A DNA stretch of 63,821 bases, the filler included, from Folioceros fuciformis (taxonomy: Eukaryota): the NCBI GenBank assembly GCA_049999805.1. It is 13 parts of 13 records of this genome, joined end to end, with 100 filler letters (N's around TTAATTAATTAA, not from the genome) between each part and the next. Parts side by side here need not be neighbours in the genome. Positions count along the whole stretch, not along the records: positions 62,564 to 63,821 come from JBNGIO010004969.1; 12 more parts are not named here. One strand, 5' to 3'. A model generated the notes under the pieces. The model had not been told where the DNA came from and did not search any database. It saw nothing but the letters and a program-made list of their open reading frames with translations. Positions 17,116 to 63,821 of this stretch are shown piece after piece. Made by a program: the position numbers and the translations under genes. Each line of letters starts with the position of its first letter. Within the stretch, counting starts at the first letter, position 1.

Positions 17116-17215
17116 NNNNNNNNNNNNNNNNNNNNNNNNNNNNNNNNNNNNNNNNNNNNTTAATTAATTAANNNNNNNNNNNNNNNNNNNNNNNNNNNNN
17201 NNNNNNNNNNNNNNN
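17116..17215. other. Artificial contig linker N44-TTAATTAATTAA-N44 (first of 12; others at 18630, 21670, 24825, 33617, 41093, 45888, 53555, 55290, 58035, 59767, 62464)
   Basis: Identical 100-bp structure; the 12-mer places stops in all six frames. Confidence 0.99.
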
Positions 17216-46626: not shown

Positions 46627-49031
46627 GATGTTATAGTTGATGGTGGTTTGTCTACTAACCTAATCAATATAGGGTGGCTTGAGGATCTTGGTTTGGCCTC
46701 TGTAAAGAGGCTAGCTTGCAATCAGGTCTTCAAAGACGCATCCAACACAAGGTTGCCTGTGGTAGGGATTGTTGAGGGCATTAAAGTGGCAGTAGAAGGT
46801 ATAAAGGTATACATGGGATTTACAATTGTGGAATTACTAGAACCAGCATACGGGGTCATCTTGGGTCAGCCCTAGCTTGAATTGGTGAAGCCTAATCATC
46901 ACTAGAACACAAGGGTTTTGGAAACCAGGCCAACCACCCATTGTGTCCAGATCAAAGCATGGCAGCCAGAGGAATTCAACATGTCTAGCAACAATTCAGA
47001 TTAAAGTTCAGAGACTTTTGTATATGAAGAGAGTGGATTAGACCAGGAGGTGGACTTCACTAGTGAACACTTCAACAGCGAGTGAGAGATGTTGCACATT
47101 TTGTCCATACGCATGGCTCAAGATAAGCTCAAACCTGCTTTCAGCGTCAAGCATCCACAGTTGAAGGACTTGAACTTTCATGCTGCTAACAATATTGGAA
47201 AAGTGGTTAACGTGGGTGTAGGAGTTAAGGGTGAAGAGATGGAGAAATATCAAGCCCTTTTCACCAAGTTTGAACATCTATTTATCACTGGCCACCAGGA
47301 GATGCCACAAACTTGACCAAGTTTAAGACTGACATTCTTGCTGATACCAAGCCCAAGATAAAAAAAATTTGTCAACTCTCATGATCACCCAAGCACATGA
47401 ATGAGGTACGACAGGAAGTCATGAGGTTAAAAGTTGTAGGTTGTATTGGGAAAGTTCAGTATCCGATCATGATACTGAACTTTCCCAATACAACCTAGTT
47501 GCTGCCTGGTGTGCAAGTAAATGTCATAAAAACTTCTTCCATGACGTTTTTGTTTTATGTCACAAATATGTTTACATTTACACAAAGCAAAAGCATCATA
47601 AGAACTCTAAAAACCACATTCCCCCATCGTATGTTGTGGCATACATAGGGGCTAAAAGTAGTAGTGTGAATGGGTGTCTCCAATAGTGATGTCAATGACG
47701 AAGAATGGCAAAATTCGTACATGTGTTTACTTTAGGGAGCTTAACAAAGCCACCAAGAAGGATAAGTTCCTTTTACCACATGTGGATGAAATATTGGATG
47801 AGGTATGAGGCTATGAGATGTATTCCTTCTGTGATGGGTATTCAAGTTTCCATCAAGTTGCGATCTCGGAGGAAGATTAGCTAGAAACAACATTCGTAAA
47901 GCCGTACGGTGTTTTCATGTCTAAGATGATGCCTAAGATCAGTCGCAAACAACATTCGTATTTCCGCGGGGTGTTTTCATGTCTAAGGTGATGCCTAAGA
48001 TCAGTCGGAAACAACATTCGTATTTCCGTGGGGTGTTTTCATGTCTAAGGTGATGCCTTTTGGTCTTTGTAATGCACCTTCTTGTTTCCCACGGGTCATG
48101 GTTGAAGTATTGGGAACTACAATAGGGAGATTTCTTAGAGTTTTCCTCGCTGACTTCGTAGTCTTTGGAAATAGGATTGAACATCCCAAGCTCTTAGAGG
48201 AGGTGTTCTTGAGACTCACAATGTCAACATAGGTCCCAACCCAAAGAAGTGTGTCTTTGTTGAAATTGAAGGAGAGCTTCTTCACTTCATGGTAAATTTA
48301 GAGGGTGTCCATGCGGAACCTAAGAAGGTATAGAAATTCCTAGCTAGACCCACCTCCGCAACTGTGGAGGAGGTCAGGTCATTTGTATAGGCAGCAAGTT
48401 TTTATAAGAGGTTGCTTCTTGTCTTCACTAAAATTGCAACACCATTGTACAAGTTGATTAGGAAAGATACAGGCCTTTTAGAATGGAGTGGAACATGCAT
48501 ATAGACAACTCAAAGACTTGATGACATAAGCTCAAGTCATGAGACTGCCAAACTAGGACAAGACTTTCTTCATCAGTATTGAGGTGACTAAGACCTCGCT
48601 TGAGTACAATCTGTTTTAGAAGGATGATGAGACAAAGTTGTACTTCCTAATCTACTTTGTAGGAATGCTCATGACTAGTTGTGAGTCAAGGTATAATTTT
48701 GTGGAGAAGGTTATAGTAGGGATGGTTACAATTGTAAAAAAGTTCCATCATTACATAGCCTCTAGGAAGTTCGCTTTCTTCGTTACCTTCCATCATTAAA
48801 TAGCCTCTAGGAAGTTCGTTTTCTTCGTTACCTTGCACGCTACAAGGTATTTGATGATGATACCAAACCCATTTGGACGTTTTGCTAAATGGCTATGTGT
48901 TCTTTTTGGATATGATTTTGATGTGCAAGTAAAGACATTGAAATTTCGGAAATTTGAGGCATGCTTGTGTGGCTATCATTGTGAGGAGGTTGCAATGATA
49001 CTAAACCTTCTGACATAGAACACAAAAAGAA
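46627..49031 (+). mobile_element. Heavily decayed Ty3/gypsy pol (protease-RT-RNase H)
   Basis: VIVDGGLSTNLI...YGVILGQP; EWVSPIV; RELNKATKKDKF; MPFGLCNAPSCF; RFAKWL. Many stops. Confidence 0.88.
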
Positions 49032-52000
49032 TGTTGTATATCAAAAAGTAAAAGTGTTTAATAAACAATAGTCTTAAGTAAACCCTAGGTTAAACTAACT
49101 AGCCTAACCTGTGAGATTAACTAACCAAGGGTTAACCAAACCCTAACACCCCCTCTTAACCGAACAAGTTAAAGACGGGAGGAGTTATTGAGCACACACG
49201 CGGAGGTTGCGTTCGGCGCTTTAGCTTCTCAGGCAGGACACGAGGAGACTATGAAACATGGGGATATCTATCCCCCTCGCGCTGGTCACTCTCAGCATCA
49301 CAGGTGTTTTTGGAGTTGCGCTGCTACTACCATGGCTCAGTCGATCAATGGAGCCCTCAGCAACCAGAGAAGACCAAGAGAAGAGTCTGTGCAAAGAAGT
49401 ACCATCACCGACGAGGAGAAGTTGAGGAGGGACTGTTGGCCATCGCAGGCGGATAGAGCCCTAATCAAGCACCTCCTTCGGACCGAGAAACCATGCAAGA
49501 AGCTGGAGGAAATGCTGAAGTCTACCAAGGCCAAAACTCTAGAAGTGCAGAACTTGGTTGCATCTACTCCAGCCAGAGACACACGCTCGCCCTCACTATT
49601 AGATGCTGAGATCAGAGTCCTCGTTAGCGAGCTGAGGAGGCTCGGCTATGGCGGCCAAGTCAACGAGGGAGAGGCACATAGTCAGCTCCGCGTTGTGGAG
49701 AGGTAGGTCTGCTAAAGACACCCCACGTCTAAGTTGTTGTCGATAAGCTTCATTCACTGAACTGTCTTCAAGCTAACACGCTGTTGTACACCTGTAGGGA
49801 AGAACACAGCACAGAGACAGTGAACACAACTGCAGCTTCGAAGTACTAACCTTGTGCTATCCTTAGACTACAGTAAGCAGGCTTCTAGGATCTGGTAGGA
49901 GTAGGTAAGACAAACTCCCTTAGCCCCAAGGCTGCTAAGTGTTTAAAGTGTTTCTGTCTGGACAGACGTTTAGTAAACAGATCAGCTGTATTCTCGTCTG
50001 TGCTAACATACTACACCTTCACAAGTCCTCGTTCAGCCACATCCCTAATGTAATGGTGGTACAACTCAATGTGTTTGGTACGGGCATGGAAACGGGGGTT
50101 GGAAACCAAGGCAATGGTAGACATGTTTTCACAAAACAAATCAGTTGGTCCAGGTTGAGGTAAGTGAAGAGACTCAAGAAACTGACGCTCCCACTCTATT
50201 TCCTTATAGGCCTTCATTAAGGCCTTGTACTCAGCCTCTATGGACGAAAGGGCTAAGGACGTTTGCTTTTTGCAGGACCAGTTGACAGAACCTGAGGCGA
50301 GTAGGCATGCATAAGCGGACAAGCTCTTACGAGAATCTGCATCCAAGGCCCAGTCTGTGTTGGCAAAGGAAGTAAGTAAAAATTCTCTCCTACCACTGCT
50401 TGTGTAATGTAACCCATTACTCAAAGTTCCACGCAGGTAACGATACACATGGTTAACTGCTACCCAATGGGATCTGCCAGGATTCTTTAGGAACTGAGAG
50501 ACCATACTCAAAGAATAGCTGATGTCAAGCCTTGTCCAGTTAGCAAGAAAAATTAGGCAACCCACAGCTTCAGCATAAGGCACTCCAAGCATATCCGACT
50601 CCTCCTTAGCAGTTTGAGGGGACTGCTGAAAAAGTCAGCTTTTCCCCCATTGTTGAAGGTGTGGCAACTGGATGAGCCTCATGTAAAGTTGAATCGTTTT
50701 AGAATTTCCTTTAAATACTTAGTCTGGTGCAGAATGACTGTTCCTTGAGATCTATCTATGAGAATCTAGATACCCAAACAATATTGCAATGGCCCTTGAT
50801 CAGTCATTTTGAATTCTAACCTAAGCTAGTCCTTGATCTTGTTGAGTTGTGAGGTGCTATTGCTCAGGAGGATTGCATCATCAACATAGAGGGCAAGCAC
50901 CACAAATAGTCCAGCATCAGCAAGATAAAAGACATTAGAGTCAGCCGAGGACTGAACAAAGCCAAACTTGCGCAGAAACTTCATTATGCGTTTATACCAG
51001 GCTCGAGGTGATTGTTTAAGTCTATATAGTGTTTTTAGTAGTTTGCACACTTTATGAGGCCATTGTTTACTAACGAACCCCTTTGGCTAGTGCATGTAGA
51101 GCTCTTCCTCAAGCTCACCATGAAGAAACGCGGTGCACACATCCATCTGATGCAACTCAAGATCAAACTCAACTGCCATAGCTAGCAGGATCCTTACTAA
51201 GGGGGACTTCACAACTGGCGAGAAAGTATCTCCATAGTCAATTCCAGGAATCTGGCTAAAACCCCTCGCAACCAACCTGGACTTATATCTTGAGATGGTG
51301 CCATTAGCATTCAATTTGGTTTTGAAAACCCATTTACACGAGATAGGCTTGCGGCCAGGTGGTAAGTCAACTAACTCCCAAGTGTTGTTCTTCATTAGGG
51401 AGTTGAACTCATCATCAATGGAGACACGCCAATGCTTGCTGTCAGGACCATTAAGCGCTTCTTCATAGCTCTGTGGATCAGGCCTAACCTCAGGTACGTG
51501 CACATCTGTAACATGAGCAGATTGTCTTCTAAAATCAATGGACTGATACTATGTCTCAACCCAATTTTCACGTGCTCTGCATTCTCTCGTAGGGTAGCGA
51601 GATAAAGGGGGCTCCTCGACAGCATTCTGATCTAGAGAAGCATCATCTCCTGCATCTGAAGTAACACCATCCACAGCAAGTTCGTCTGAAACATGTGAGT
51701 TAATCGACTGGATAGACTGATCATCTCCTTCATCCTGAACTATTGCATAATCTGGATGGGCTGCATCATTCTGAACTGCCTCATTATCCTCATCTTGAAC
51801 AGGGTCTAACTCTGCTACTACCGAAGCATCAAGCTGTTCCTCACCGTCATACTCAAGGTAGTTGTGAAACACTTGTGTTGGTTCTAAGCTTAAACCAGAA
51901 AGCACAACATCACTAATACTAATAGGATCTACTGGATAGAGCTGCTCTACAGAGGAATCTGAACGAGGAGAGGTGAATTCAGTGATGGTAGCACTTCTGG

Positions 52001-62463: not shown

Positions 62464-62563
62464 NNNNNNNNNNNNNNNNNNNNNNNNNNNNNNNNNNNNN
62501 NNNNNNNTTAATTAATTAANNNNNNNNNNNNNNNNNNNNNNNNNNNNNNNNNNNNNNNNNNNN

Positions 62564-63821
62564 TCAATTTTATGTGACAACATGTCTGCACTTGCCCTTG
62601 TTGCCAACCCTAGGTTCCACGCACGTACTAAGCACATTGAAATACAGCACCACTACATCAGAGATGTTGTGGGGCGTGGTGCTGTCAAGGTTGGCTACAT
62701 AAGCACAGAGGACAATGTGGCAGATGTGTTAACAAAGGGCTTGGTGAAGCATAAGCACTACAAGCATATGTCAGGCTTAGGCCTGGACGACTACTCAAGG
62801 TATTTGGGTGCGGAGTGACGTATCTGTGGATGGTGGGGCGGGAACCCGAAGGTTCCCTAGGTGATGATGGGTTGTGTCTGCAAGCTTCTTCGCCGACATA
62901 GATAACTGCACTCGGCCACACACCCACAACTAGGTCAGCTACCGCACGCTAGCCCTTGAGGAGACAGAGGGAGTACATATCACTTTGTTGCAAGAAGGAT
63001 GAAGCTCACCTTAATACACAATCTTCTTGTAGTACAGTGCCCTCTACAGAGACGGTTTCACATCCTCCTCACCGTCGTCAGGGTTTGGTCCCTTTCCAGC
63101 TGCAATGATGTCCTCCAGCTTCTTGATCCTGTCAGTTGCCCGCCGAAGGCTGGTGATCAAGGCAGGCAGACCCAGCTCAGAGTAACGGAAGTCCGGTAGC
63201 CAGGGATCACGTCCTTGCCCGAGTACCAGTCACTGGTACTCGAGTATCGCTCTGTCCCTGGGAGAGGCCCTGGATCGGCTGCAACGCTGCTCATCAGCTG
63301 CGAGAGTTCCTCCGGCGAAGTGCATCTAACCTATGGCAGAGGCTCCCGAGGTTCTTCCGTAGCTGGTGCTGGTCTGGGTTGCCTTCTGCACCTCTGGGTC
63401 TTTGGCGGGGTGGTACAGATCTTTCCACTGCGCGTCGGCATCTCTTTGAGGCGATGGCGAGCGTGACAACTGAGCTGGATCGCGACAAGGAAACTGAGTG
63501 CGATGGTGGCGGCTGCTAAACCCAGCGTAAGAAGGATGGCCATTCCTGAGCGCTGGGGTTTAGGCGTAACCGTGCAGCATCGTAATCGTGACTCCGTTGC
63601 AGAGCGAAGGACCCCGTTCCGTGATAATGGTGAAGAGGGGACTTATCTATATGACCGTTTTTCTAGACCTAGTGTTGCTTGAGAGGGAGTGTTGAGAGTA
63701 AAAGCCAACACATAGTCTAAGTAACGTTAGGGTTAGCAGACTAGCCCAAATGAAACGTCATTCGGGTTTAGTATAAAAACAACACACGATGTCAATTCTA
63801 AAACTCACTTTCTTTATTTTT
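62564..63821 (+). mobile_element. Copia 3' end: RNase H end (to 62818), ~0.86-kb 3' region with antisense ORFs, PPT 63681-63689, 3' LTR from 63690
   Basis: NPRFHARTKHIEIQHHYIRD...VADVLTKGL; GAGAGGGAG|TGTTGAGAG. Confidence 0.9.

Follow-up and report, generated by a model that had tools for sequence, protein, structure and literature searches.

The window, the whole stretch of DNA that was analysed, comprises 63,821 nt from Folioceros fuciformis. Close to its 3′ end lies the terminal part of a copia element with a small gene on its antisense strand, located on a separate contig (G000:C4969, 62564–63821). The window is made of 13 unrelated contigs joined by linkers of the form N44-TTAATTAATTAA-N44 (at 17116–17215 and 11 further places), so neighbourhood across the linkers carries no meaning. 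The pol that lies 5′ of the N linker at 62464–62563 is that of a different element. The start of the first contig (1–457) is an array of a 44-nt repeat.

Starting at the 5′ terminus of the contig the sense strand encodes the RNase H end of pol, with the stop at 62818, and continues for about 870 nt before reaching the PPT and the 3′ LTR (Table 1). The RNase H end is 86–96% identical to those of the nearest copies of the family to which the antisense gene belongs, here termed F2. As the window copy itself retains only this end of pol, the copia domain order is read from relatives, including an F2 element, in which gag, protease, integrase and RVT_2 domains are found by Pfam in copia order. Across 74 nt the 3′ LTR is 74% identical to that of the full-length element L197, which has a pair of 158-bp LTRs (94% alike), a 5-bp TSD and a PBS that we take to be of the tRNA-Met type. 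A truncated member of the copia clade elsewhere in the genome adjoins a 289-aa open frame (L015:1–1200), presumably PPR-like.

Table 1. Features of the antisense gene, its host element and the related gene of copy 1, in window coordinates.
Feature	Position	Strand	Basis or remark
RNase H, 3′ end of copia pol	62564–62818	+	Cut at contig start; translation and tblastn against other copia RNase H ends
Conserved stem-loop, invariant 8-mer at 5′ side of loop	62992–63028	+	3′ region of element
Decayed antisense accessory gene, family F2	63044–63543	-	Open copies have about 165 codons; comprises ORF-A and ORF-B
C-terminal amphipathic helix and acidic tail	63044–63217	-	In-frame part of ORF-B; profile 88–144
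Frameshift zone	63217–63251	-	Common to nearest sister L002; pairwise DNA alignments with three other subfamily copies
Conserved gene core, in ORF-A frame, not ORF-B frame	63247–63330	-	C4969 match 684–968, query 6–103, one stop
Premature stop, read earlier as end of ORF-A	63331–63333	-	Profile continues past in same frame
Second Met and basic motif M-x-T-R-S-G-K	63415–63441	-	Common to F3 and F4; hhalign F2–F3, F2–F4
Hydrophobic N-terminal helix, putative membrane anchor or leader	63478–63534	-	Hydropathy 2.38; membrane insertion putative
PPT	63681–63689	+	Purine run, TG directly after
3′ LTR	63690–63821	+	Runs to contig end; 89.6% over 125 nt to sister copy
Antisense gene of copy 1, family F1, one gene in two frames	49258–49706	+	Element on minus strand; F1 profile 49323–49688

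The sequence-only reading placed two antisense genes here, ORF-A (63543–63331, 70 aa, with a hydrophobic N-terminus) and ORF-B (63325–63044, with one internal stop). Both translate as described, and the Kyte–Doolittle 19-residue maximum of ORF-A is 2.38 from residue 4. Their status as a gene pair does not hold, as the family profile joins both into one antisense gene. This profile (A1, built from 13 natural stretches that include the C-terminal piece of the sister copy and exclude that of the window) matches in two consecutive pieces. The first (63510–63247, profile 4–83) lies in the ORF-A frame and runs through its stop, and the second (63217–63047, profile 88–144) lies in the ORF-B frame. 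Because the profile keeps the ORF-A frame there, about the first 30 codons of ORF-B, including its ATG, are off-frame. A single frame spans the profile in 19 of 23 F2 loci (C4787, C1283 and C6285 being counted among the 19 despite partly shifted stretches), nine have no stop within the match, and an open copy encodes 165 aa. The sister copy L002 is 93% identical to the window copy. The F1 family, that of the second such gene in the window (copy 1), likewise has one gene, in a single frame in open copies such as L027. ORF-A and ORF-B are thus almost certainly one real antisense accessory gene, dead in the window copy by a stop and a frameshift. That they are two separate genes conserved as a pair deserves hardly any credence: two frames with a hydrophobic first part are present in both window copies, but the breaks fall at different places in copy 1 and copy 2, the single frame of most F2 loci and of open F1 copies and the off-frame ATG of ORF-B contradict it, and no programmed frameshift that might rescue it is conserved at one site across the F2 loci.

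Codon comparisons show the F2 gene to be protein-coding and, as judged from substitution patterns, under purifying selection. Nine pairs drawn across two F2 subfamilies give dN/dS values of 0.31–0.41, which are subject to a downward bias from protein-guided codon alignment. The same pairs give pN/pS of 0.51–0.60 in the gene frame versus 0.91–1.23 in four other frames, with 0.60–0.68 in the sense frame whose third positions coincide with those of the gene. The fewest stops and the third-position excess are also found in the antisense gene frame. The codon set comprises 12 copies (the window copy excluded) and 66 pairs that are not independent, many of them saturated. Pairs within a subfamily range from 0.35 to 1.16, as expected from decay after insertion. 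All segments of the gene have pN/pS below 1, the least constrained in F2 being the hydrophobic leader (0.65) and the motif stretch (0.68); the leader of the F3 family gives 0.55. Frame tests and profile hits revealed no conserved sense-strand ORF in the region.

The gene occupies a fixed slot. The proposal that it would lie consistently antisense between RNase H and the PPT is borne out in 22 of the 23 distinct F2 loci found by searches of the same genome and in 75 of 89 F1 loci, with none in the sense orientation. For F1 there are 96 matches, and the 89 distinct loci checked for position combine 26 of 29 with 49 of 60; for nine of the misses in the latter set the contig ends within 500 nt. 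Four further F1 loci entered via RNase H, and two are not included. The further families F3 and F4 were found among 80 RNase H neighbours drawn from the best 150 of 2096 candidates, a sample biased towards the element studied here. F1, F3 or F4 is carried by 41 of these 80, and profile hits are 53 antisense and none sense, a count that is partly circular in that 26 of the same loci had gone into the F3 and F4 profiles. Small antisense genes of this kind extend across the clade, with at least four families and more than 140 loci in one genome. The four families have different cores, share the one slot and are interleaved on the pol tree. Antisense frames that match none of F1–F4 occur in the same slot at L118, L130, L183, L175 and L180, at L119 and L131, and at L160, L161 and L182; these could possibly be fifth and later families. 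In a subclade of 11 loci (L108, L110, L111, L114, L120, L122, L126–L128, L132 and L167) RNase H and the PPT are separated by about 280 nt. This leaves no room for the gene, and the stem-loop described below is kept. This subclade has nevertheless multiplied, and the gene is therefore dispensable.

The proteins of F1–F4 are built to a common plan. They open with a Met and some 20 hydrophobic residues, then have another Met with a basic stretch, and continue through a core that differs from family to family to a helix at the C-terminus. The N-terminal hydropathy exceeds 1.5 in most full-length members of F1, F2 and F3, and several F3 and F4 copies have stops within the hydrophobic stretch. The second Met is kept in 16 of 23 F2 rows and 19 of 27 F3 rows. 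Comparison of profiles with hhalign gives probabilities of 77–83% for F3–F4, 55% for F2–F4 and 29–45% for F2–F3, with reversed controls below 1% for these pairs; the link rests mainly on M-x-T-R-S-G-K/R-x-Y. In an unpicked count, an exact M-x-x-R-S-G is present in 8/23 F2, 10/27 F3 and 2/6 F4 rows. Two of these 20 (from 56 rows in total), the F3 copies L138 and L151, carry Leu in third position and match MXLRSG exactly. Among 22 rows picked for the motif M-x-T-R-S-G its Arg is specified by six different codons and its Ser by AGY only. The motif is absent from all F1 members and from one F2 subfamily (L039, L040, L042, L043 and L050), which is on a separate pol branch and is without the hydrophobic leader as well.

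The AlphaFold2 model of the F2 protein is of low confidence (pLDDT 45.6), its best-predicted part being a helix of residues 121–146. That of F3 (pLDDT 64.9, pTM 0.33) is a helix, a beta hairpin and a helix; it has no match in the PDB or BFVD at E ≤ 0.001, and the best Z (4.5) is to single helices. Pfam gave no usable domain for F1, F2 or 21 F3 members, PF04195 (Transposase_28) included. A PDB sequence search provided nothing usable, nor did the ESM Atlas, where recognition was below threshold. No outside homologues of F1, F2 or F3 were found among proteins of near length in libraries poor in plant transposon ORFs, so that absence is not implied. For expression, the reads of one run compared with an F3 element matched it in two 40-nt stretches of pol, too little to inform.

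A stem-loop adjoins the gene in the 3′ region of the element. Its 8-mer is located between RNase H and the stop of the gene in 117 of 144 loci, in all families and the geneless subclade, against an expectation of at most 0.2 per group. None of six other copia RNase H ends in the window is followed by it, and in copy 1 it is degenerate. In 35 loci picked for the motif, with kinship uncontrolled, 6.83 of 8 stem positions pair, compared with 6.13 ± 0.13 when the 3′ halves are swapped. G-T combinations outnumber A-C (38 versus 12), which points to the sense RNA. Rfam gave no match on 62780–63821. The stem-loop is also seen in L107, L112, L124, L126, L181 and others. It may possibly be a packaging, dimerization or 3′ processing signal, which is a guess.

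The covarying stem-loop and its retention by elements that lack the gene could suggest that the region is kept as RNA (an antisense RNA or a structure) with the reading frame a by-product, and micropia and other elements do have non-coding antisense RNAs (PMC7264820). This is improbable, however, given that the third-position excess, the lowest pN/pS and the fewest stops all fall in the gene frame, that the arginine of the motif is conserved through six codons, and that the stem-loop is outside the gene frame.

The copy 1 stretch is at 49173–49706 (+), in or beside an RT remnant, gypsy-like in our judgement, that has within it a 62-nt unit repeated three times in tandem (47873–48058). The RNase H ends of the two copies are alike (62% identity) and the LTRs are not, their similarity being limited to 45 nt at 76% (E 0.008), just as the sequence-only reading had it. 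Its ungapped match of the two ORF-B peptides is indeed their best local alignment, with 9 of 21 residues identical by direct count. The score of 39 has p 0.019 against 5000 full shuffles, 0.029 against local and 0.012 against heptad-keeping shuffles, which is weak for a hand-picked helical pair, and the ORF-A pair (A2 versus A1) gives p 0.055. Between F1 and F2 hhalign gives a probability of 1.5%, at E values that range over the comparisons from 0.005 to 0.03, or 6.8% with enlarged alignments of 100 and 29 rows, where a reversed-profile control reached 11.3%. Its register is two heptads off that of the 9/21 match, and with weak p values and profiles favouring another register we reject that match as proof of homology. 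Cross-HMM scores between F1 and F2 are no better than those on reversed sequences, and genome searches provided no locus common to both families. Of the protein-level conservation of an accessory gene pair that had been suggested, a coding gene across divergent families stands and the pair does not, and the homology of copy 2 with copy 1 is not supported by sequence.

In a pol tree of 125 rows (nine that are too short, including the window copy and its sister, being left out) the main F1 clade has a support of 1.0, and it groups with F2, F3 and F4 elements at 0.996. Inner branches of the tree are weak, and neither F2 nor F3 forms a single clade. The pol tree and the shared stem-loop make common descent of the two 3′ regions likely. 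Common ancestry of the copy 1 and copy 2 genes themselves is plausible from position, related pol and shared stem-loop, and we lean slightly towards it.

Eight of 64 F1 loci (L066–L070, L083, L219 and L061) belong to a distant copia lineage, with a pol identity to the main clade of 0.36–0.43. Their cores nevertheless reach 0.50–0.60 identity with genes of the main clade (for L061, possibly a nested chimera, the figure is 0.78), compared with a median core identity of 0.32–0.34 for main-clade pairs at a pol identity of 0.55–0.75. The gene tree places them within the main clade, and the 8-mer is present in four of six of these loci. High core identity with a distant pol, together with the nesting and the 8-mer, suggests capture of the whole 3′ cassette. 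The sequences point to transfer of the cassette into the distant lineage, probably by template switching.

Antisense ORFs behind pol are described for maize Grande (gene23), rice RIRE2, Silene Retand, bean PvRetro13 and fungal Boty (PMC7264820; PMC11963269). Grande GENE23 is nuclear with its own antisense promoter, and the function of such ORFs is an open question (PMC7264820). With this aORF-3R/eORF-3′R group the present genes share place and orientation, retention in most copies, conservation between families and lack of a host protein match; the nuclear role is proposed there, and for the F2-type protein it is likewise by proposal only. Grande, RIRE2 and Retand are gypsy elements (Retand lineage) with a pol–3′ LTR region of 2.9–6.6 kb and a TRP28 (PF04195) domain. 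The F2-type gene differs in being in a copia element with a region of about 870 nt, in its length of 130–200 codons, and in having an N-terminal hydrophobic helix and no Pfam domain.

The extra ORFs of bdelloid rotifers (ORF3) are small, with transmembrane and coiled-coil parts; unrelated retroelements share them through exchange between lineages, for which template switching has been proposed (PMC5408684). They lie downstream of pol in animal gypsy-like and Penelope-like elements, and the likeness is one of description. The REXdb survey counted extra ORFs of at least 250 codons (PMC6317226), and with that minimum it would have missed genes of 130–200 codons such as these. Its Additional file 5 gives reverse 3′ ORFs at 1% for SIRE and dashes for most copia lineages; for Bianca and Ikeros there are two small figures each in ambiguous columns, and copia stands at a few percent at most (PMC6317226). 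A literature search restricted to papers outside subscription found no work that describes such reverse ORFs as characteristic of a clade of plant copia elements; some may be listed in Additional files 1 and 3 of REXdb. Antisense 3′ ORFs are already known in gypsy elements; those described here form a diversified family of small genes in a plant copia clade.

The best overall explanation, which we hold with modest confidence, is that the gene encodes a small adaptor for the element's own cycle that acts at the nucleus and is transcribed antisense from the 3′ LTR. A nuclear or membrane tether role takes about half of the confidence placed in a real single gene. The antisense transcript would start in the 3′ LTR, the putative promoter site, which lies 147 nt from the first ATG in the window copy and 143 nt in one other copy. 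The product would comprise a hydrophobic anchor, a second Met with the basic motif, a variable core and an oligomerizing helix. The anchor may fix the protein to a membrane of the ER or nuclear envelope, and translation beginning at the second Met would yield a soluble version. The basic motif may bind nucleic acid or chromatin, or be an import signal. Such a role would be akin to those of the gypsy antisense 3′ ORFs and of retroviral accessory genes, which are helpful, not essential, fast-evolving and exchangeable.

The product might instead be an env-like or movement-like membrane protein that aids particle assembly on membranes or cell-to-cell passage, a role also proposed for the ENV-like proteins of Sireviruses; we consider this unlikely. 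The Sirevirus (SIRE) ENV-like ORF also belongs to copia elements and is located between pol and the 3′ LTR, and the hydrophobic helix and coiled-coil-like helix seen here are both features of its proteins (PMC3414828; PMC6317226); for the F families these are judged by hydropathy and predicted helices only. The ENV-like proteins also fall into many mutually dissimilar groups (19 in REXdb), as does this multi-family slot (PMC6317226). Against this, the Sirevirus gene is sense, its length as counted in REXdb is 250 codons or more, and its elements measure about 9.9 kb, whereas here the gene is antisense and short (130–200 codons) in elements of about 6.8 kb. Moreover, the N-terminal anchor is followed by a basic low-complexity stretch with no large ectodomain, and the leader is absent or broken in some copies.

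Slightly less likely again is an anti-defence factor directed against host silencing, where unrelated or fast-diverging genes of the slot would be swapped between lineages in an arms race. The interleaving of four families with different cores, and an F1 gene in the distant lineage with a core identity that is high relative to pol, are what this would lead one to expect. However, there is no known suppressor domain, dN/dS indicates constraint, and transfer would suit any useful accessory gene.

Within the adaptor explanation a more specific form can be proposed by analogy. MXLRSG is the chromatin-binding motif of KSHV LANA and IL-33 (PMC4958301), and its arginine anchor binds the acidic patch of H2A-H2B (PMC9040877). 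The Met, Arg, Ser and Gly of M-x-T-R-S-G are equally spaced with those of MXLRSG, with Thr usually in place of Leu. This likeness is confined to six residues, absent from F1 and many rows; it implies no homology, and makes binding a lead only. The exchangeable cassette (stem-loop and antisense gene) might then encode a nucleosome tether, membrane-anchored or soluble, whose arginine would anchor on the H2A-H2B acidic patch. It could guide the element DNA to chromatin, or loosen silencing. This is a speculative proposal, and as a whole a little less likely than either of the preceding alternatives.

A single genome with more than 140 loci, at least four families, a gene-losing subclade and a seemingly gaining lineage is a natural comparative set, and the short motif M-x-T-R-S-G is open to testing at the level of peptides. 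If the nucleosome tether proved true, it would provide a concrete and testable mechanism for the long-unexplained antisense ORFs of LTR retrotransposons.
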